This document shows, piece by piece, positions 3,535 through 33,033 of a stretch of DNA of 34,963 nt (position 1 is the stretch's first letter; every line of letters starts with the position of its first letter). The notes under the pieces are model-generated. The model did no database searches. It was not told where the DNA came from and saw nothing but the letters and a program-made list of their open reading frames with translations. Made by a program: the position numbers and the translations under genes. Source of the DNA: a virus (taxonomy: Duplodnaviria > Caudoviricetes); the IMG/VR virus record IMGVR_UViG_3300037519_000043, positions 1-34,963 of that record; one strand, given 5' to 3'.

Positions 3535-3564
3535 CAAATATAATCATTAATTATTAATCTGCAA
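3535..3564 (-). promoter_or_regulatory. Bacteroidota primary-sigma promoter (-33 TTG, 19-nt spacer, -7 TATATTTG)
   Basis: Matches TTG-N19-TAnnTTTG. Confidence 0.85.
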
Positions 3565-3820
3565 GTATTTCTTTAAATTTTTCTAAACTTTTTATTAAAT
3601 AATATTTGAAGCCTTGTTCAATCAATTGCTTTTCAACGTATTTCTGTAATTCAGATTGGATGCCACGTTCCGCTTTAAATTCAACAAATATTGTTTTACC
3701 GTCTTTAAATAGAATTGAATCGGACATACCGTTAATATTGCATTTAATAATTTTCAATGCTATCCAACCTTTAGTTTTAGCATATTTTAAACAACTTGCT
3801 TGAATCTTACTTTCTAACAT
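3554..3820 (-). CDS. VRR-NUC domain nuclease (putative resolvase)
   Basis: E..IQ......G.....G..D......G..IFVEFK...G.QS.LQ. Confidence 0.88.
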   Translation of the reverse strand: MLESKIQASCLKYAKTKGWIALKIIKCNINGMSDSILFKDGKTIFVEFKAERGIQSELQKYVEKQLIEQGFKYYLIKSLEKFKEILAD

Positions 3821-4305
3821 AGCTCTTTTAATTTATTTTGATATGCAACCGATGCTGCTAATTCACATTTGAAATAACCAATGGTTATATTTTTACCATT
3901 AAAATGTATTCTAGCTCTCCATTTTTTTGAGTTTTTATGCCAACAAACACCTTTATATTTTGATGAGTATTTACCTTGAGTTTTATATGCGTTTTCTCTT
4001 TGAGTTATTAACTGTAAATTCTCTAAACGATTATCAGTAGAATCATTGTTTATATGGTCTACTACTACTTTATATCCACAAGGTGTGTGATTTAAAAAAG
4101 CCATTGCTACAAGTTGATGAACCTTGTATTTTTTTTTAATATTATTTTTACACAAACCGACATAATAACGATTTTGATTTTTTACAATCGCTTGTTTTAA
4201 AATTCTTTCTTTACGTGTTTTATCACTACCTAATGACTTTACACTACCTAATGAACTTACTTCGTAAAGCCCTTCATAATTCGGAATTGATTTCCATATT
4301 TCCAT
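3814..4305 (-). CDS. NUMOD4-HNH homing endonuclease with C-terminal AP2 domain
   Basis: EIWK.IP.YEG.YEVSS.G.VKS; VH.LVA.AF; VDHINN...DN.LENLQ; SKYKGV.W....KWRA.I. Confidence 0.92.
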   Translation of the reverse strand: MEIWKSIPNYEGLYEVSSLGSVKSLGSDKTRKERILKQAIVKNQNRYYVGLCKNNIKKKYKVHQLVAMAFLNHTPCGYKVVVDHINNDSTDNRLENLQLITQRENAYKTQGKYSSKYKGVCWHKNSKKWRARIHFNGKNITIGYFKCELAASVAYQNKLKELC

Positions 4306-4390
4306 AAAAAACAAAACCCCGAGTATCCGTGGTGGTAGTCACTTCAACTCGAGGAATTTAATAAGTTTTTAATATAGCTACCACACTATG
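4306..4390 (-). ncRNA. Kissing-loop leader RNA, copy A
   Basis: P1 loop GUGGUAG (4378-4384) is complementary to distal loop CUACCAC (4332-4338); stem CCUCGAGU/ACUCGGGG followed by a U-tract; -7-like TATCTTTA at 4394-4401. Confidence 0.8.
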
Positions 4391-4401
4391 CAGTAAAGAT
4401 A

Positions 4402-5622
4402 CTAATAATCTTTCTTAAACACACTCAAAGTGTAATTTTTTTTATTCATTACAGCTTTGTATATTTTATCTTCTATTCCATTTTTAGCAAAAAACCAATA
4501 TATATTATTTTCAGGTCTTTGCATGGTCGTTAACCTATCTCTACTTTGCCAATATGATACCGCGCTAAAATCAATGTTGTAATAAATTAAAGAACTTGCA
4601 AGGCTTAAATTAACCCCCTCTCGTCCCGAAACTATTTGGTAAGCTATTGATTTATTTGTGTTGTTAAATTCATCTAACTCAGTTGTTAATGCATCACCAA
4701 AAACAACTTTTAAAGCATCTAATTCAGCTTTAAATTTATAAAAAATAGCTATCTTTTTATTATGAAACATATCTTTAATAGCAATAGCTTTTGAATAATC
4801 TAATACAAATGTTTTACCGCTTTCAAATTTTATTGTTCCTGAATATAATTGATGTAACTTAGACATTAATTTAATTGCAGAATCAGCTAATATAACATCG
4901 TTTTTTCCTTGAACAATTAAATCTCGTTCTAATCTTTTTATAACATCGTATGTTGGTTTTTTCATATCTACATACACTATATTTTCATTTATTTTAGAGA
5001 CAAAGCCAGCTTGTTCTTGAGTAAAAGAAATTTTATAAGGTTTTAATACCGCTTCAATTAAATCATTTTTTGCATCTTTATAATCTTTTATAACTCCATA
5101 CCCTAAGTTTTTTGTTTTAACATTTACAAAAGTAGAAGCCCATTTATAAAATGTAGGGTACTGATGAAATGGTGTGTATTTACTAACAAAGAATTGATGA
5201 TATATTTGAGAGTAACTTTCAGGAGTTGGAGTTCCGCTTAAAAAGATCATCGGTAAATGAGAATATCTTTTTTTTAGTTCCTTTGCTCCTTTACTTGGTT
5301 TTGGAAAACTTCCGTATTTGTGATGCTCATCACTAATAACTATATCAAACACTCCATTTACTTTATGGATTGATTCTGTATTTGTAACCGTTAGATTAAA
5401 CGTATAACCAAAGTTAGTGTAATCGCTTTCAATCGAGCTTATAGCTTTCTTTTTAGTTAAGAATAGAACGTTGTTAGCTCCGTATAGTTTAGCGGTGTTA
5501 AGTGCCATAAGTGTTTTCCCTGTCCGTACTTGGCAAATAAGATAAACAAGTTTTTTATCTCTTAATATATTAACTGCTTGCTCAGATATCTTTACTTGAT
5601 AATCTCTTAAAACTAAATCCAT
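4402..5622 (-). CDS. Superfamily 2 helicase
   Basis: LRDYQ Q-motif; RTGKT; DEHH; LSGTP; GREGVNL; QSRDR. Confidence 0.92.
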   Translation of the reverse strand: MDLVLRDYQVKISEQAVNILRDKKLVYLICQVRTGKTLMALNTAKLYGANNVLFLTKKKAISSIESDYTNFGYTFNLTVTNTESIHKVNGVFDIVISDEHHKYGSFPKPSKGAKELKKRYSHLPMIFLSGTPTPESYSQIYHQFFVSKYTPFHQYPTFYKWASTFVNVKTKNLGYGVIKDYKDAKNDLIEAVLKPYKISFTQEQAGFVSKINENIVYVDMKKPTYDVIKRLERDLIVQGKNDVILADSAIKLMSKLHQLYSGTIKFESGKTFVLDYSKAIAIKDMFHNKKIAIFYKFKAELDALKVVFGDALTTELDEFNNTNKSIAYQIVSGREGVNLSLASSLIYYNIDFSAVSYWQSRDRLTTMQRPENNIYWFFAKNGIEDKIYKAVMNKKNYTLSVFKKDY

Positions 5623-6134
5623 TTTTGATATGTTTTATTGTTAATAATAAGACTTATTATGCTTTGTGATACATTATACATTTTAGATATTTCTCTTTGT
5701 GTAACTCCATAAATATGCATACTTTTTATTTTTTGTATTTCATTTAAGGGTATTTTCCTTGATTTTATACCATTTGTTTTTTTTCCTAATACTTTGTATG
5801 AATGAATTTCGTTTTCAGAATGAGTACACCATTCCAAATTTATAGCGTGATTATTCCATGATTGCCCATCTATATGGTTGACACATGGTTTGTTTTCAGT
5901 GTTAGGTTTAAAATATTCAGCTACCAATCTATGTACTAAAAAGCGTTTTGGCTTATTGTTTACACACAAAGTAACTCTTTTGTAACCCTTACTATTTTCA
6001 AGTTTTAAATACTTTAATTTGTATTTTGTTACTTGACCATTAGAATATACAATAGTACATTCATTTCTTTTAACTCTACCAAAGTTTGAAACTTCATAAT
6101 TCTCAAAACCTTTAATTTTTTTCCAGTTTTCCAT
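5613..6134 (-). CDS. NUMOD4-HNH homing endonuclease with C-terminal HTH
   Basis: ENWK.I.GFE.YEVSN.GRVK; VHRLVA; VNHIDG...NN...NLEW.T.SEN..H; TQREIS..YNVSQS.IS.I. Confidence 0.92.
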   Translation of the reverse strand: MENWKKIKGFENYEVSNFGRVKRNECTIVYSNGQVTKYKLKYLKLENSKGYKRVTLCVNNKPKRFLVHRLVAEYFKPNTENKPCVNHIDGQSWNNHAINLEWCTHSENEIHSYKVLGKKTNGIKSRKIPLNEIQKIKSMHIYGVTQREISKMYNVSQSIISLIINNKTYQKWI

Positions 6135-6219
6135 AAAAACAAAACCCCACTAATCAGAGGTGGACGTCTCATCATAGTAGGGATTTAATAATTTCTTACT
6201 GTAGCGTCCACTCTACAAG
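6135..6219 (-). ncRNA. Kissing-loop leader RNA, copy B
   Basis: P1 loop GUGGACG (6205-6211) is complementary to CGUCCAC (6160-6166); stem CCCUACUA/UAGUGGGG followed by a U-tract; compensatory changes relative to copy A. Confidence 0.82.
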
Positions 6220-6221
6220 TG

Positions 6222-6229
6222 CAAATATA
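6222..6229 (-). promoter_or_regulatory. Bacteroidota -7 element TATATTTG for the HNH cassette
   Basis: Exact TAnnTTTG; no clear -33 element. Confidence 0.65.
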
Positions 6230-6233
6230 CAAA

Positions 6234-6335
6234 TTATTTTTTAATAACTTGCATCATTAAATAAACTATTCGCTTTTCTTTGAGAATACCGCACGCTTTG
6301 TGCGATATCTCAGTTTGGTAATCTCTTAAGAACAT
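6234..6335 (-). pseudogene. Stranded 5' fragment of the helicase gene (MFLRDYQTEISHKACGILKEKRIVYLMMQVIKK*)
   Basis: 16 of 28 residues identical, ungapped, to the N-terminus of 4402-5622; similarity ends just before RTGKT. Confidence 0.88.
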
Positions 6336-8551
6336 TTCACTTCATTTAACATATTATAAATACTTTGTCTACTTACACCCAACAATTCAGCTAATTCTTT
6401 TTTATTAAAGTCAGGGTTTAATTTATAAGCTTCTATAACTGTTTCTTTTTTAGATTTCGTTTTATTGTTAGTAATAACTTGTTTTAATTCTCCTACTTCA
6501 ACACTATCAATCTTAATCTTTTTAGCCATATTGATAAAGTATTTGCTTAATTTTTCAGCAGCTAACATTGATTCCTTAGAAATTACAAACATACTTTTTG
6601 ATTTACCCTCATGTGCGTATAAAACATTTAACATTAATGCAAATCTTGGTATGTAAGATTTTTGTTTTGGCAACATACTTTTCATGTATTCATTTTCAAT
6701 ATCTGAATTTTGAATAGCTGTTATTTCTTTATCTATTCTTTTATACTCAATTTTAGCTTCGGGACTTAATAATGCAACGTGTGATATTATTTCATCATCT
6801 GAATCTTTTAGCAAATATTCTTTTTTTATCTTATCGTAAAAATTTAAAATATAGCTATTATACCATTCGTGTACCTCTTCATCCATTTCAGCATCACTAA
6901 ACTCTTCAATCTTCACATCAGGATAACAAGTTAGCATCCTATCTACAAATCCATTATCTTTATTTTCAGCACTAAAAAAACCATTTAAAATACCCGGTTG
7001 TATACCTCCTAAAACAGGGATGATAGGACTTTCAATAAAAGCATTTTTTGATGTTCTTCTGTTAAGTGAAACCCCCTTGTTTGACCATGTAGACAACCAA
7101 AACTCTAAATCTGAACCTGCTCGATATTTATTCATATCTTTTAACCATCCTGACAACTCATCTTTAAACACTCCAATAGAGTTTTTATTCTCTGAATGTA
7201 AATCAATAAGGGCTTCAAGTGTAATATCGTTTGCGATAAACTGAGTTTTTTTTGGTTGCTTTTGTTCTTCAACACGTTCCTTTTCTTTTTTATCTAATTC
7301 TTGATATTTCTCAAAGGCAGTCATTTTTTTAATGTAATTCTTTATCTCATTACTATTTGCTTTGTGCAATGGGAAAATAACGTTTTCAATGTTTGGCGTT
7401 TTACCAACTCCAGGTTTACCCACTAAAGCCAACCATAAATTAACAGATTCAATCCAACCTGTTTTTACTTGTACTTTTATAGAATTTCCAATAATAACAG
7501 AAAGAACCCACATAAAAGCGCAACCCATATAATCTATTGAACTGTTTAACGTTCTGTTACATTCTAACAAATAGTTTTTAATATTATCAGGGTAAATATC
7601 TAAAGGAAAAGTTAAATCTTCTTGATTTATTATAACCTCTTTTCTTATAGATTCAACTTCTTTTACTATTCTACTTCCATAACCTTTTTTATATAGTTCA
7701 CTTGCTGACTCTGTATAGTCTCCATTATGGTATTTGATAGTGTATAAATTAAATGGACTTAATAATTTTTCATTTGGGTACATTGTACCTGTTGAAAATA
7801 GAAATAAACACCCTGTATTTTTAAATACATATCCTGAATGTGGACTTGTTGCCCCATGTCTTTTTATTACATAAGAGTTTTGTGTATTTCTAACTATTGT
7901 AAATTCATCGTCAATTATGTCAAATACTGAATGTTTATTGTTATAATCTTCCCACGGTGTGATTTCATTTTTTACAATGTATTCAGACTTTTTCGGTAGC
8001 TCTATTGTTTTAGGGTCTTTGTAATCATAGGTCTTAGAAATAGACCAAATTATATCTCTTTCCTCTTCAGTGATATAATCTATTTGGTGATATTCTTTTT
8101 CAGTTAGAAAGTTATCATAAATAACAACAAAACCACCTACACCCCTTGTTTCAATTATTGCCTCAGTCATACCTTCAAGCTTTGCTATTTTGGTATTTCC
8201 AATAATAGTTTTAGACTTATAAAGAATATGATAACCACCCTTTTGAGTTTTAGATATTACTACCTTATCCATGAAGTCCTCTATGTTATCACACAGGAAT
8301 GCAAGGTATTCATCCCACCACTCTTTTTTTTCTGTTACAGTACCTAAAACTTTTAAATCTATGTCTATAACCTCTAAATCATTAAATCCTGTTACAAGTC
8401 CGTATTTAGGGCAATTTAAAAGTTCTATTTGTTCTGTATCTCTTTTAGATGTTTGATAATCTTTCCATACGCCAATAGGTCTTTTATCTTCATCACAGGG
8501 TATAATACTATACCCTATTGATGAAAGTTTTTTTAAATATTCTTTAATCAT
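6326..8551 (-). CDS. Bifunctional primase-polymerase fused to a DUF3987 P-loop ATPase and a C-terminal HTH
   Basis: GYSIIP...K.P...WK.YQ; VIDID; T..GGYH..Y; IETRG.GG; GKPGVGKT; DELSGW; NGF.DR.L; LAELLGVSRQSIY. Confidence 0.88.
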   Translation of the reverse strand: MIKEYLKKLSSIGYSIIPCDEDKRPIGVWKDYQTSKRDTEQIELLNCPKYGLVTGFNDLEVIDIDLKVLGTVTEKKEWWDEYLAFLCDNIEDFMDKVVISKTQKGGYHILYKSKTIIGNTKIAKLEGMTEAIIETRGVGGFVVIYDNFLTEKEYHQIDYITEEERDIIWSISKTYDYKDPKTIELPKKSEYIVKNEITPWEDYNNKHSVFDIIDDEFTIVRNTQNSYVIKRHGATSPHSGYVFKNTGCLFLFSTGTMYPNEKLLSPFNLYTIKYHNGDYTESASELYKKGYGSRIVKEVESIRKEVIINQEDLTFPLDIYPDNIKNYLLECNRTLNSSIDYMGCAFMWVLSVIIGNSIKVQVKTGWIESVNLWLALVGKPGVGKTPNIENVIFPLHKANSNEIKNYIKKMTAFEKYQELDKKEKERVEEQKQPKKTQFIANDITLEALIDLHSENKNSIGVFKDELSGWLKDMNKYRAGSDLEFWLSTWSNKGVSLNRRTSKNAFIESPIIPVLGGIQPGILNGFFSAENKDNGFVDRMLTCYPDVKIEEFSDAEMDEEVHEWYNSYILNFYDKIKKEYLLKDSDDEIISHVALLSPEAKIEYKRIDKEITAIQNSDIENEYMKSMLPKQKSYIPRFALMLNVLYAHEGKSKSMFVISKESMLAAEKLSKYFINMAKKIKIDSVEVGELKQVITNNKTKSKKETVIEAYKLNPDFNKKELAELLGVSRQSIYNMLNEVKCS

Positions 8552-8856
8552 AACTCTATAATTTTACTTCTTTTATGATACACTCTATAAATATCTTCAT
8601 ATGTTTCAGCAAGTTTATTTTTAAAGACAACCTTATTAACTATCTTAGAAATATTAAAGTCATAGTTGACACCATATTTTCTTTTTTCAAATCCTAATTC
8701 AGTCATTACGTCAATTATTTCTTGATTAGAAACGTAAACACCAATTGAACTCTCGCAAATATGCTTTAAACTATAAGAACCTGGAGCATTTGAATTAACG
8801 TTTTTAGTTCTTGTAAGGGCATTTTCCACCCATTTTTTTATGTATTCTGTTTTCAT
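8548..8856 (-). CDS. Conserved hypothetical (SYxLKHxxE...YVSN...M...GF motif)
   Basis: Motif recalled from primase-adjacent phage proteins; coupled to the primase gene. Confidence 0.65.
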   Translation of the reverse strand: MKTEYIKKWVENALTRTKNVNSNAPGSYSLKHICESSIGVYVSNQEIIDVMTELGFEKRKYGVNYDFNISKIVNKVVFKNKLAETYEDIYRVYHKRSKIIEL

Positions 8857-8860
8857 AATC

Positions 8861-9064
8861 TTAAATTGTTGTTACAAATATATACTCTAAATCTAACCAA
8901 TCATTTTTGGATATTTTAATCACTTGGATGACTTCATCATTAAAATCAAATGTGTCTTTCAAATTAATTTCTCCAAAACTTTCACCTACAGGATTAACTT
9001 TCAAATTATCTACGTTAATCATAAGCCTTTGTAATTCCCCTTTTCTTTCTTTAAACTTTTTCAT
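8861..9064 (-). CDS. Hypothetical protein
   Basis: Fills the operon; likely start MKKFKE. Confidence 0.65.
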   Translation of the reverse strand: MKKFKERKGELQRLMINVDNLKVNPVGESFGEINLKDTFDFNDEVIQVIKISKNDWLDLEYIFVTTI

Positions 9065-9066
9065 AA

Positions 9067-9291
9067 TTACCATTCTGTTGTGTTAGTTATACAATAATTA
9101 TCTCCTGGGTGTGCATTCATCCAATCCCCCTCTGTTAGATAAAATGTTTTTAAATTATTAGTGTTTGAATTTCTAATTGTAATAGAGTACTCATGTACAT
9201 TATCACTTACTATTCTACCACACGTTGATGGTTCTTTTGAACAGCTTAACATAGTTAATACTGTTGCTACTGCTAACATTACTTTTTTCAT
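9067..9291 (-). CDS. Small lipoprotein
   Basis: MKK, hydrophobic core, then MLS-C-SKE lipobox. Confidence 0.75.
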   Translation of the reverse strand: MKKVMLAVATVLTMLSCSKEPSTCGRIVSDNVHEYSITIRNSNTNNLKTFYLTEGDWMNAHPGDNYCITNTTEW

Positions 9292-9293
9292 GA

Positions 9294-9455
9294 TTACTTG
9301 TTTAATGATGGGTTGTGTACTACACTTAAAGTTGTGCCGTCTTTTAATACTGTCGTTTTAATTGTGTAAGCCACACTTTTTAACGATCTTGTTTGTTCTT
9401 TTGTCGAACAACTTGCTAAAGCTAACAAGCCTAAAGCAATTACTAGTTTTTTCAT
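9294..9455 (-). CDS. Small lipoprotein (53 aa, MKKLVIALGLLALASCSTKE...), not in ORF track
   Basis: Manual translation; LAS-C lipobox. Confidence 0.75.
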   Translation of the reverse strand: MKKLVIALGLLALASCSTKEQTRSLKSVAYTIKTTVLKDGTTLSVVHNPSLNK

Positions 9456-9473
9456 ACTGTACTTATGTTAAAT

Positions 9474-9566
9474 TAAAAAACCCACATTGTGCTTTCGGAG
9501 TACAGCCTACTAACACAATATGGGTTTACAAATGTCTTTTGTTTTACGATGCCTGTACTTCATCTT
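9474..9566 (-). ncRNA. Kissing-loop leader RNA, copy C
   Basis: P1 GAUG/CAUC with loop AGUACAG complementary to CUGUACU (9499-9505); 16-bp stem, AGUA/GAA internal loop, U-tract. Confidence 0.75.
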
Positions 9567-9575
9567 AACACTCTA

Positions 9576-9606
9576 CAAATATAACTGCTATTTTCTTTGT
9601 TTGTTT
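9576..9606 (-). promoter_or_regulatory. Promoter of the replication operon: -7 TATATTTG overlapped by a near-match late motif AAACA-N16-GTTAT
   Basis: CAAATATA at 9576-9583; ATAAC at 9581-9585 and TGTTT at 9602-9606. Confidence 0.65.
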
Positions 9607-9654: not shown

Positions 9655-9826
9655 TGTAAAGTAGTGTAAAGTAGTGTAAAGTAGTGTAAAGTAGTTTTGG
9701 ACACTACTTTGTAGGTTTTATAGGGTTTGTAGCGTTTTTTTACACTTTTTACACGAAATAAAAAATTAAAAATATTTTTACGTTTTGTTTTATTTATTTG
9801 TTGGTGTAAAGTGTCCAAAGTGTAAA
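9655..9826. repeat. Candidate replication origin with iterons
   Basis: 4x tandem TGTAAAGTAG (9655-9694); inverted TTTTTACAC x2; 10-bp inverted repeat TTTGGACACT/AGTGTCCAAA; AT-rich centre. Confidence 0.65.
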
Positions 9827-9839
9827 ATTATACACACAC

Positions 9840-9866
9840 AAAAAAACCGACTTGTTAGGTCGGTTT
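9840..9866 (-). terminator. Intrinsic terminator of the early operon
   Basis: AAACCGAC/GTCGGTTT stem plus T-run on the minus strand. Confidence 0.8.
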
Positions 9867-17605: not shown

Positions 17606-17640
17606 AAAAAAAAAGGAGGGAAGTTAAACCCCCTCCCTTT
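17606..17640 (-). terminator. Terminator after the major capsid gene
   Basis: GGAGGG/CCCTCC stem plus T-run. Confidence 0.8.
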
Positions 17641-17661: not shown

Positions 17662-18621
17662 TTAGTTAGCTGAGTTAGGAATGTTATAAGTTACGATGTC
17701 AGACACTGAATGGTAATTAACTGCCATACCAGCTCTCAATACAAAACGTACATTTTGTGAACCGTCCAATGGACTCATGTCTAAAAGCGCGATTTCATTT
17801 GTATCATTTAATAAACCGCAACCGAAGAACAAGTTTGAAGTCTCAGCAGCAATAGCAGTGTTTGCAGCCAATCCGTTAGCAACGAAAATCGGAATACCAT
17901 CGAAAGTTAAAGCACCACCATTATACCATTGTGTTCCTTTAGCATCTGTACCAGAGTTAGAAGTAGCAGCAACTGAGAAACCACCCAACGCTCTAATGTA
18001 AGCCTTCATAACACCTTGAGGAACATAGATTTTTAAATCAGGTGAACCGTACAATGCATTAGGAATTGCATCTACAATTTTACCTAATTCAGCGATTACC
18101 GTAGCAGAAGCAGAAATAGCAGAAGAACCTGCAACCTCGTTCGCAGTTGGTAAAGCAGCGTCAGCAGCTAACAAAGTAGAAATACCATCAATTTGACCCG
18201 CTGTTGCGTTTGTACCTCTCCAAATAGACACCTCTACAGATGAAGCAACCTTATCAGTGATGTAAGCTAACAAGTAGTCAACAAATGATTTTGCCAAAAC
18301 TTTGTTTGCACTGAAGCCCATTTCTTCAGCTTGAAAAGTAGCCAAAAAGTCTTTTTTACACAATTGTAAATTTACTTGAAATTGCTCTAAAGTCAAACTT
18401 CTTTCAGAAAGTGTTACAGTAGATGTAGCATCAAAATCACACGTAGCGTTCTTTAAAATGTCGTCCGTTCCAATTTTGAACATTGTTGTTTTGTATGCAA
18501 TGTTAGGAATGATAGTCATCCCCCCATTTGCCAAAGTGTTACCGCTTAATAAAGCAGCTTTTACCCATAGCTTAGAATCTTGCCCAGCATATGAAGTTGA
18601 AATGTTAATTGTTGTAGCCAT
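17662..18621 (-). CDS. Major capsid protein
   Basis: SYAG; A.CDF; L.ER.L....FQVN.QLCKKDF; LLDM...DGS.NVR; follows the scaffold gene. Confidence 0.85.
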   Translation of the reverse strand: MATTINISTSYAGQDSKLWVKAALLSGNTLANGGMTIIPNIAYKTTMFKIGTDDILKNATCDFDATSTVTLSERSLTLEQFQVNLQLCKKDFLATFQAEEMGFSANKVLAKSFVDYLLAYITDKVASSVEVSIWRGTNATAGQIDGISTLLAADAALPTANEVAGSSAISASATVIAELGKIVDAIPNALYGSPDLKIYVPQGVMKAYIRALGGFSVAATSNSGTDAKGTQWYNGGALTFDGIPIFVANGLAANTAIAAETSNLFFGCGLLNDTNEIALLDMSPLDGSQNVRFVLRAGMAVNYHSVSDIVTYNIPNSAN

Positions 18622-32155: not shown

Positions 32156-32547
32156 CCTAAAAATCCGCCTTGCCCTTCTGGAAAAGACTCTTTGTTATAT
32201 TCATTAAAAACTATTCTAACTTTACGTAACATGTCATTCAAACATGAAGCACATGAAGTTGGTCGTTCGTTTGTTTTAAATACTCTATTGTAAACCTTTA
32301 AAAACTCTATTTGTTGTGATGGTTTAATCTTAACTGAAATTTGAGGTAATAGTTCTTCCAATAGCTTATATTCAGGTTCTGTTAAACATTCAGGTGTTTT
32401 ATAAGGAAATAGTTTATTTAATACTTCTTTACGTTTATCACATCCACAATCTTTACCTGCAATGAATTTAACTGCCTTGTCAATCCCTGTTGCTTCAGTA
32501 AACTTAGCTACTGTATCTCCAAATCCTTTTGATACTCTTTTTGCCAT
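32152..32547 (-). CDS. Conserved Cys-containing phage protein (G.GDT..K.T..TGI; DCGC..R...LN; C.SC)
   Basis: Motifs; located between the sigma gene and terS. Confidence 0.75.
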   Translation of the reverse strand: MAKRVSKGFGDTVAKFTEATGIDKAVKFIAGKDCGCDKRKEVLNKLFPYKTPECLTEPEYKLLEELLPQISVKIKPSQQIEFLKVYNRVFKTNERPTSCASCLNDMLRKVRIVFNEYNKESFPEGQGGFLG

Positions 32548-32990
32548 ATCTTTAATTTTCGTTTGCATTTTTTAATTGTGTGAAAAATAGAGGTCAAACT
32601 TATCTTAGTTTCTTTTTCTAATTCTCGCATACTTTTTCCGCTTCGCAAATATAATAAGAATAGTTGTTGGTCGAACCATTCCCATGATTTTATTTCATCT
32701 TCAACACTCTGATAGTATAACTCAATTTCATATGTTTTGTTGTTTTGGTCTTCTGATAGATCAACAAGAAGGTCGATGTCTACTGTTGAAACATTCCGCT
32801 TGCATGAATCGTAAAAAGAGTTACGCAGCATTATCCAAATGAATGATTTGGTTACTACTTGACCTTTGCCGTATTTGTGAAAACGAAGATACATATCTTG
32901 TACAATGTCTTCAGCATCGGTCTTGGCTCCAAAGCGTTTAACAATTCTTACCCATTCATCATGATACTGCGCTACTTCTTTTAAATCCAT
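32508..32990 (-). CDS. ECF-like sigma-70 factor (late regulator)
   Basis: Region 2 AEDIVQDMYL; region 4 HTH SMREL.KET.IS..SI..TI. Confidence 0.75.
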   Translation of the reverse strand: MDLKEVAQYHDEWVRIVKRFGAKTDAEDIVQDMYLRFHKYGKGQVVTKSFIWIMLRNSFYDSCKRNVSTVDIDLLVDLSEDQNNKTYEIELYYQSVEDEIKSWEWFDQQLFLLYLRSGKSMRELEKETKISLTSIFHTIKKCKRKLKIWQKEYQKDLEIQ

Positions 32991-33000
32991 GTGTATAAAC

Positions 33001-33033
33001 AAAAATACCCTTACAACAATCGCTGCAAGGGTA
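33001..33033 (-). terminator. Intrinsic terminator immediately upstream of the sigma gene
   Basis: 12-bp stem TACCCTTGCAGC/GTTGTAAGGGTA, 4-nt loop, then TTTTTGTTT. Confidence 0.75.

Follow-up and report, generated by a model that had tools for sequence, protein, structure and literature searches.

Covarying kissing-loop leader RNAs ahead of endonuclease and replication genes in Bacteroidota phages: candidate transcription attenuators

Three leaders of one design

To our knowledge, how the replication genes of Bacteroidota phages are timed and limited is poorly known. The window analysed here, a whole stretch of 34,963 nucleotides from a Caudoviricetes virus (IMG/VR record IMGVR_UViG_3300037519_000043), raises this question at three sites on its minus strand. 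According to the original prediction, a -7 element is followed at each site by a short 5' hairpin (P1) and a long stem with a U tract and the ATG, and the 7-nt loop of P1 (the code) is perfectly complementary to the tip loop of the stem. Do these leaders form one family, is the loop-loop pairing (the kiss) maintained, and what could it do to the genes behind it?

A descriptor combining P1, a 7-nt Watson-Crick loop-loop match, a tip stem, an outer stem and a U tail picked out copies A, B and C alone on both strands of the whole window, whereas 40 dinucleotide shuffles gave 0.175 matches per window (maximum 2); exactly three minus-strand leaders of this design are thus present against 0.175 expected. 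Significance belongs to the full architecture, the 7-nt kiss alone being not significant with 7.2 chance matches per shuffled window. On the minus strand each code complement occurs solely in its own tip loop, and no separate RNA carrying one was found elsewhere in the window.

Copy A is headed by a putative -7-type promoter box of the variant sequence TATCTTTA (4394..4401, minus strand, as are all features below). Its P1 hairpin (4374..4389, AUAG/CUAU, code GUGGUAG at 4384-4378), identified from sequence, descriptor and covariation, is followed by a terminator-like hairpin and U tract (4309..4354), in which the long stem (4354-4317) comprises an 8-bp lower stem, a 4x4 internal loop (UGAA/GGAU) and a GUG/CAC tip stem with the tip loop CUACCAC (4338-4332). 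Copy B has a match to the -7 promoter box, TATATTTG (6222..6229), a P1 hairpin recognised by the same three kinds of evidence (6200..6217, UGUAG/CUACA, code GUGGACG at 6211-6205) and a terminator-like hairpin with U tract (6138..6182; stem 6182-6145, internal loop UGAU/UGAU, tip stem GAG/CUC, tip loop CGUCCAC at 6166-6160). In copy C, the box match TATATTTG (9576..9583) precedes a P1 hairpin identified from sequence and descriptor (9548..9564, GAUG/CAUC, code AGUACAG at 9559-9553) and a long terminator-like hairpin with U tract (9474..9524; stem 9524-9481), which has a 13-bp lower stem, an AGUA/GAA internal loop, a GG/CC tip stem and the tip loop CUGUACU (9505-9499). Loop complementarity and internal loops are as originally described. 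The boxes are also present as claimed, although that of copy A is of the TAnnTTTA variant, with a final A in place of G, which occurs in 11 of 194 catalogued elements; taken by itself, TAnnTTTG shows no enrichment across the window (57 versus 60 expected). The start codons lie at 4305 (A), 6134 (B) and 9455 (C), 10–11 nt past the stem in copies A and B, and the U tracts of these two copies are interrupted by an internal G.

Copies A and B are homologs with 75% identity, and to that extent the proposed three-copy family stands. A model built from the A/B superfamily gives copy C a score of only 11.4 bits (E 4). By sequence comparison, copy C represents the same architecture on a different scaffold and is no third member of the A/B sequence family.

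Behind copy A lies a NUMOD4-HNH-AP2 endonuclease gene (3814..4305, 163 aa) and behind copy B a NUMOD4-HNH endonuclease gene (5613..6134, 173 aa); an SF2 helicase gene (4402..5622) is located downstream of the latter and upstream of copy A. The gene run starting behind copy C contains a Prim-Pol/DUF3987 primase-helicase gene (6326..8551), which, like the preceding three, was assigned with PHROGs and Pfam. Its first gene, a 53-aa ORF read directly from the sequence (9294..9455), has a lipoprotein-like signal and no PHROG or Pfam match. At the copy A site, the 13 closest relatives carry either leader and HNH gene together (3, each with another code) or neither (10), and an HNH gene lacking the leader was found in none of 32 loci; the copy A junction in relatives L002, L004 and L018 holds TATATTTA/TATATTTG/TATCTTTA. 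The promoter-leader unit, proposed to be portable, moves with homing-endonuclease genes, yet it also heads core replication genes.

Covariation and distribution of the leader

The catalogue of related elements comprises 194 distinct elements with 69 code strings on 41 scaffolds, and is biased towards the A/B-type and NUMOD4-start patterns that seeded it; 11 of 205 caller matches were filtered out before counting, of which, by eye, about 7 looked real and about 4 chance-like. Catalogued elements precede HNH, GIY-YIG, primase, helicase, initiator and methylase genes. A scan of the genes downstream of 53 cluster representatives returned nucleases, replication genes, methylases and unknowns, and the idea of a leader specific to nucleases was abandoned on this tabulation. 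The element is present in four of the nine cultured Flavobacteriia phages checked, including Cellulophaga and Flavobacterium phages, and is therefore open to experiment. For the window itself, no close cultured relative was found by primase or helicase comparison; blastn of copy B against GenBank phages gave no match, and an IMG/VR search with the HNH of copy B returned one distant locus. In bacterial genomes (37 of 64 parts scanned), 3 of 121 matches to the A/B-type pattern were true elements; therefore, the A/B type is rare in chromosomes.

The dimensions of the 194 elements vary little: the code lies about 10 nt after the box, the code-to-stem distance is 24 nt (IQR 23–26), and the tip-to-stem-end distance is 15 nt (IQR 15–16). 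A P1 of 3 bp is absent in 10 of 194, and the 5'-side hairpin is therefore not universal. Internal loops recur, with GA on both sides in 109 and AGUA/GAA in 20 of the 194 elements. Tuning of the linker to the stem was rejected, the two lengths being uncorrelated over the 41 scaffolds (rho -0.08).

The kiss was examined in 93 unique sequences chosen on the box and 5' hairpin alone. An exact 7-nt complement was found in a downstream loop of 91 of them, over 14 codes, and an enclosing stem with a U tail in 90; none of the 91 kisses contains a G-U pair, versus 57 of 716 pairs in the lower stem. In an earlier subset, the complement was present in 71 of 72 sequences with the box versus 1 of 27 without it. 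Selection from the other side, on the 3' end alone, gave 27 of 38 sequences passing the strict descriptor. Among 44 diverse A/B-type sequences, double changes were observed at six of the seven kiss pairs, at all four P1 pairs and at all three tip-stem pairs, bearing out the covariation first noticed between copies A and B; 98.7% of cells pair, and slid controls drop to 29–56%. Therefore, both hairpins and the kiss are maintained. An extended 5'/tip helix, which appeared in nested folding of partial transcripts, was treated as a by-product because the covarying pairings are those of P1 and the tip stem.

Searches with Rfam 15 gave no match in the window, nothing but chance snoRNA/miRNA matches at E 0.5–9 between 4000 and 10000, and a single tRNA match across 20 related loci; Flavo-1 (RF01705) had no match at E 10, and the RT-19 model had none either. 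Large catalogues of phage structured RNAs have reportedly been compiled by Fremin and colleagues. A description of the element was not found in the literature titles and abstract openings searched, and an earlier uncurated listing is possible. By its sequence pattern the element is a portable, strongly covarying leader RNA absent from Rfam, in agreement with the original failure to assign it to a known family, and its interest lies in its abundance and its position ahead of replication genes.

Candidate attenuation by the kiss

The long stem and U tract recur across the catalogue as a terminator-like end. At least 5 U occur within 8 nt in 183 of 194 elements; U tracts are often interrupted, and the average for one scaffold of 16 is 4.9 U in 8. 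An ATG lies within 30 nt in 178 of 186 elements. The short spacing of the ATG from the stem in copies A and B would suit purely translational control, in which the long hairpin beside the start codon would tune ribosome access with no termination, and these phages commonly have U-rich stretches ahead of AUG. A-3 and mRNA structure are described as tuning initiation in Flavobacterium (PMC6847099). Such control is nevertheless highly improbable: in nearly all scaffolds a G-C-rich stem base runs immediately into U (T 83–95% at +2 to +5), 8 of 194 elements have no ORF start within 70 nt, and one has its start 54 nt away.

We give a probability of about one half to the reading that the leaders are transcription attenuators whose kiss promotes read-through at a terminator close to the promoter. 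On emergence of the tip from RNA polymerase, the kiss would form and hinder closure of the stem base, resulting in read-through; if the kiss were missed, the terminator would fire and an RNA of 80–100 nt would be released. The footprint of RNA polymerase is close to 15 nt; given the similar distance from tip to stem end, the kiss would form just when the polymerase reaches the U tract. As a first choice, the balance could be tipped by folding kinetics in cis, setting a read-through fraction and, for copy C, a short translation window; as a second choice, by a same-code short RNA competing in trans.

That the kiss would be the ON state we infer from the guanidine-IV (GGAM-1/mepA) riboswitch, which has the same topology. 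In its descriptions (PMC7736828; PMC11611296), the 5' hairpin loop likewise kisses the terminator-hairpin loop across an inter-stem linker, a U tract and then the start codon follow, the kiss blocks full terminator assembly, and stem growth shortens the linker. The leaders share with guanidine-IV the pairing of the P1 loop with the terminator loop. The two differ in that 97% conserved loop positions are given for the riboswitch (PMC7736828), whereas the leaders have 69 code strings and, in a crude anchored profile over 41 scaffolds, no code position conserved above about 55%. Moreover, the leaders are borne by Bacteroidota phages, start at the promoter, have no known ligand, and precede no guanidine-related genes among the 53 cluster representatives.

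The shared topology also invites the idea that read-through is set by a metabolite, an ion, or a protein of host or phage bound at the kiss junction, the internal loop or the A/U linker. In the A/B superfamily, conservation exceeds 90% at code positions G7, U8 and G13, at a few linker A and at the tip-closing G-C; however, part of this conservation is imposed by the search pattern, the profile over all scaffolds argues against it, and the downstream genes have no metabolite in common, which makes such a switch improbable.

Against the read-through direction stands a rough rod/linker estimate of 0.55–0.79 for the three copies, by which the linker is long enough for the kiss and the full stem to coexist. 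They might then form a compact fold that tucks in the 5' end. The leader would have no switch; as a constitutive leaky terminator, it would set the dose of downstream genes and give rise to a stable small RNA or a stabilised mRNA end. The joint covariation of all helices and the recurrence of ordered internal loops agree with this, and T4 mobE offers a precedent, a free-standing HNH gene whose transcripts are limited by an intrinsic terminator close to its 5' end (PMC2790892). However, an exact 7-bp kiss would be needless for a plain leaky terminator, timing would matter for the primase, helicase and initiator genes that several scaffolds head, and the second target of C-type copies described below implies two states; we regard the compact fold as doubtful. 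T4 mobE is promoterless and its terminator internal, whereas the cassette studied here brings its own promoter box and a kissing leader, a leader found ahead of non-nuclease genes as well.

If the attenuation reading is true, the topology of a kiss over a terminator, which is known from a single riboswitch class, would be a general ligand-free control module. Its pairing letters would be freely exchangeable, and a phylum short of genetic parts would have in these leaders a natural collection of candidate orthogonal regulators.

Predicted second target, possible pairing in trans and code evolution

In copy C, the code AGUACAG is repeated at -8 to -2 before the AUG (9457..9463), where it is a predicted alternative partner of the tip loop. 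Among 11 distinct C-type sequences the repeat is exact in 9, has one change in 1 and is lost in 1; its retention spans three variants of P1, three of the lower stem and several downstream genes. In the relative L532, the 5' code, the tip and the 3' repeat change together, and over the 27 columns that follow the stem the change in the 3' repeat is all that separates L532 from the window; this three-way covariation is one event, reached by 39 of 500 shuffles. With a cut-off of -10 kcal/mol, chosen after data inspection, pairing between tip and start region is predicted in 3 of 40 scaffolds versus 0.35 expected, and the second target is absent from copies A and B and from 37 of 40 scaffolds. This putative target over the start region of C-type copies is newly recognised here. 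Under attenuation, a tip loop freed by loss of the kiss would mask the start region, including A-3, a position that tunes initiation in Flavobacterium (PMC6847099), and translation would also be off; a target that would shut off kiss-less transcripts fits the kiss as the ON state and gives direct experimental access to both states.

For C-type copies the suggested analogy with P4 CI RNA gains support. CI acts on seqA and seqC, which flank it (PMC4825925); the leaders resemble it in having a loop complementary to an upstream and, in C-type copies, a downstream sequence, in their position ahead of replication genes, and in premature termination, predicted for the leaders. They differ in using a single 7-nt loop on the terminator itself, in their 80–100-nt unit with no Rfam match, and in that both targets are present in 3 of 40 scaffolds, that of copy C among them, copies A and B lacking the downstream one. 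CI is a processed RNA that acts in trans to bring about termination, whereas for the leaders such processing and action are hypothetical. A further likeness is to the ColIb-P9 repZ pseudoknot and Inc antisense RNA, where a cis loop pairs near the start codon and is competable at the same loop (PMC4705826); the leaders differ in lacking a leader peptide, a Shine-Dalgarno sequence and enrichment of antisense promoter boxes. Antisense -7 boxes occur in 18 of 192 elements versus 24 of 177 in a control stretch, a count that does not exclude a transcript.

Feedback in trans, for which P4 CI with its flanking seqA and seqC is a precedent (PMC4825925), we consider unlikely. The terminated short RNA would accumulate, and its tip loop would pair with the 5' loop of newly made transcripts of the same code, and in C-type copies with the start-region repeat, switching its own unit off; each code would be a separate channel and possibly an exclusion signal between co-infecting phages. 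The strictly Watson-Crick kisses are consistent with this, the C-type second target needs a state with a free tip loop, and over all co-resident pairs 2 of 91 cross-pair over 6 nt versus 7.3 expected (p ~0.02). However, within the A/B superfamily 2 of 17 co-resident pairs cross-pair versus 2.5–2.8 expected in a low-powered test, and the contig L217 carries one code twice; selected orthogonality of the codes, part of the original prediction, is unsupported once scaffold is controlled. Similarly tentative, and in our view unlikely, is an address-coded RNA layer in Flavobacteriia phages, in which each early promoter would produce a short RNA whose 7-nt loop would open its own terminator in cis and, once released, repress same-code transcripts and start regions in trans. 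If true, each genome would have 2–4 independent timers, and same-code phages or endonuclease cassettes would silence each other.

The evolution of the codes also argues against feedback in trans, as diversifying selection is not seen: the rate of change per site is 0.055 in the kiss (about 0.10 if its four free positions are taken alone) versus 0.146 in the lower stem, and the single most common code accounts for 34 of 93 sequences.

Phage genome and its three leaders

The window is a complete virus record of 34,963 bases with direct terminal repeats, whose annotated genes lie on the minus strand and include those for terminase, portal, primase-helicase, SF2 helicase, Erf, Gam, and SSB. TAnnTTTG is the Bacteroidota promoter box consensus, and the presence of such boxes ahead of gene runs suggests that the host belongs to this phylum; searches by primase and helicase found no close cultured relative. 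A phage-encoded sigma-70 region 2 protein (32508–33002) could regulate late transcription, and a strong terminator (17611–17640) follows a 319-aa gene of the structural module (17662–18621).

The three minus-strand leaders of the original prediction, A (4306–4390), B (6135–6219), and C (9474–9566), were all borne out on reading the sequence: in each, a promoter box precedes hairpin P1, whose 7-nt loop (the code) pairs with the tip loop of a downstream terminator-like stem (the kiss). They are the sole matches of the architecture descriptor in the window (shuffles give 0.175 per window), and a second, independent promoter-anchored caller returned the same three and nothing else. The proposal of a three-copy family holds for A and B, which are homologs, but not for C, which scored only 11.4 bits (E 4) with the A/B-superfamily covariance model, built on P1 and the tip stem only; no fourth copy in the window scored with this model. 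Another TATATTTG box (3535–3542), which has no kissing leader, stands before the small ORF that lies upstream of Erf and Gam.

No Rfam 15 family matched the leaders in the window or related loci, and no description of them was found in the literature searched, mostly at listing level, or in term searches of the main texts of PMC2864571 and PMC5737381. Sequence comparison thus far indicates that this kissing-loop leader is real, widespread, and uncatalogued, with a predicted function.

Conservation of the loop–loop pairing

As a guard against circularity, homologs were picked on one half of the element only. With the 5'-half pattern TTTG-N-GTAGAGTNNNNGCTAC and the complement sought within 70 nt, an exact 7-nt complement was present, among the matches listed, in 71 of 72 unique evaluable sequences with a TAnnTTTG box and in only 1 of 27 without it. 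Adding further loci to these matches gave 91 of 93, with 14 codes; of the two exceptions, one is a chance match and the other an element whose kiss has one mismatch. The A/B-type element of locus L315, with a single kiss mismatch, may be a code-change intermediate or a decayed copy. When selection used only the terminator end and a NUMOD4 start, 27 of 38 sequences passed the strict descriptor.

The expected loop–loop covariation was found in 44 diverse A/B-type sequences, with double changes in 13 of 14 pairs of P1, kiss, and tip stem; 98.7% of cells in these helices were paired, falling to 29–56% when the partner was slid. Since these rows came from a caller that requires the kiss, the weight rests on the half-selected figures. 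The lower stem contains 57 G-U among 716 pairs, which, together with the U tract and box orientation, suggests that this strand works as RNA.

Over 104 nearest-neighbour edges, change per site was 0.055 in the kiss, 0.146 in the lower stem, and 0.188 in the linker, and the codes look as though they drift slowly by compensatory change while purifying selection on them is strong. Orthogonality of the codes stood in so far as co-resident codes nearly always differ (cross-pairing over 6 nt in 2 of 91 de-duplicated pairs versus 7.3 expected), but within the A/B superfamily the count (2 of 17) is near that expected (2.5–2.8), and selection for orthogonality is only a possibility. Different genome slots carry different scaffolds by descent, and one contig, L217, has the same code twice.

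Distribution, gene context, and mobility

Run on IMG/VR loci and on 50 retrieved records, the caller yielded 205 unique elements. The 194 left after filtering carry 69 code strings and fall into 41 scaffold clusters. Shuffling the 5' 28 nt cut the caller's recall to 4.5 of 219. At least one element occurred in 131 of 163 contig regions examined, and two to four in 69. The median layout is fixed: the box, 10 nt, the code, 24 nt, and a stem with 16/15-nt arms, then 8 nt of which 6 are U, and an ATG 10–27 nt later. Three scaffolds (L027, 11863; L036, 4685; L288, 1190, minus strand) have no clear 5' hairpin, and an 8–10-nt code at the predicted transcript start pairs with the terminator loop.

Bacterial genomes seldom carry the A/B type (3 of 121 pattern matches were true in the genome parts scanned). 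Four of nine cultured Flavobacteriia phages checked carry an element: Cellulophaga phi19:3 (KC821608, near 4112, minus strand), phi10:1 (NC_021802, 10239), and phi19:1 (NC_021799, 10353), and Flavobacterium phage 11b (NC_006356, near 33621; 28 bits, E 0.05).

First genes behind the leaders, from one representative scanned in each of 53 clusters and weighted by cluster size, comprised 73 NUMOD4-HNH (a sample biased towards HNH by the search seeds), 10 GIY-YIG-type, 13 primase-helicases, 5 helicases, 7 initiators or loaders, and 4 methylases, besides Erf, an antirepressor, RNase H, and many unknowns. Copy A lies directly after the helicase stop. At this site, three of the 13 closest relatives have box, leader, and HNH, each with another code, and ten have none; among 32 evaluable loci, leader and HNH were found in 5, a leader before another gene in 5, neither in 22, and HNH without a leader in none. 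By this comparison, copy A is a cassette. Depending on the phage, C-type leaders (homologs of C) precede HNH genes, the gene of a T5orf172 protein, or small ORFs that are lipoprotein-like. Behind C itself, two such ORFs come first (9067–9455); the one of 74 aa weakly matches Cor superinfection-exclusion proteins (E 1e-4).

Possible mechanism and the start region of copy C

Box, P1, kiss, stem, U tract, and gene context are established at the sequence level. Transcription would start from the box and terminate at the U tract. By its predicted mode of working the leader resembles a guanidine-IV-type attenuator, yet it is not a member of that family. In guanidine-IV, according to PMC11611296 and PMC7736828, the kiss interferes with formation of the full terminator, and the linker comes under strain as the stem grows; by analogy, the kiss would be the read-through state. 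With a 15-nt 3' arm, the tip would emerge just as the polymerase reaches the U tract. Guanidine-IV has a conserved pocket, whereas no pocket is conserved across the phage scaffolds, which favours ligand-free kinetic control of read-through. Since the linker has the length needed to bridge the rod, the RNA might also be a compact fold that forms constitutively on a leaky terminator. The main rival to kinetic control is that the released RNA acts in trans, as P4 CI RNA does on seqA/seqC (PMC4825925).

The code of copy C recurs at 9463–9457, positions -8 to -2 relative to the AUG. True homologs made up 8 of 12 viral and 10 of 10 metagenome matches in C-tip scans, on partly shared contigs, giving 11 distinct C-type sequences, window included. 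The second copy is exact in nine, has one change in L527, and is lost in L544. In L532, the 5' code, tip, and second copy are all changed together (GGUACAG/CUGUACC/GGUACAG), and over the 27 columns that follow the stem L532 is otherwise identical to the window; this three-way covariation is one event, and 39 of 500 shuffles reach that level. In two scaffolds unrelated to C, the code abuts the AUG (L004) or a 10-nt match runs right across the AUG by way of a U-G pair (L288/L039). Against 1,200 unrelated start regions, tip pairing at -10 kcal/mol, a cut-off chosen post hoc, occurred in 3 of 40 scaffolds versus 0.35 expected (P about 0.005).

The two duplexes predicted for copy C are of similar strength (-12.2 and -11.2 kcal/mol, flanks included). 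Flavobacterium initiation is tuned by A-3 and local structure, as stated in PMC6847099, and therefore tip pairing over the start region would repress translation; in C-type leaders the start-region copy may serve as an OFF lock after the kiss is lost. By eye, a conserved UAACAUA (9464–9470) ahead of the second copy could pair with UGUGUUA (9509–9515), part of the long stem's 5' arm, and so lengthen the predicted OFF fold.

Just upstream of the C promoter lie four tandem copies of the 10-nt unit TGTAAAGTAG (9655–9695) and further TTTACAC/GTGTAAA repeats with an A/T-rich stretch (9720–9830), a region that looks like an iteron-type replication origin. Locus L038 has a similar array. A bidirectional terminator-like hairpin (9844–9866) closes the upstream gene run ahead of the repeats and copy C.
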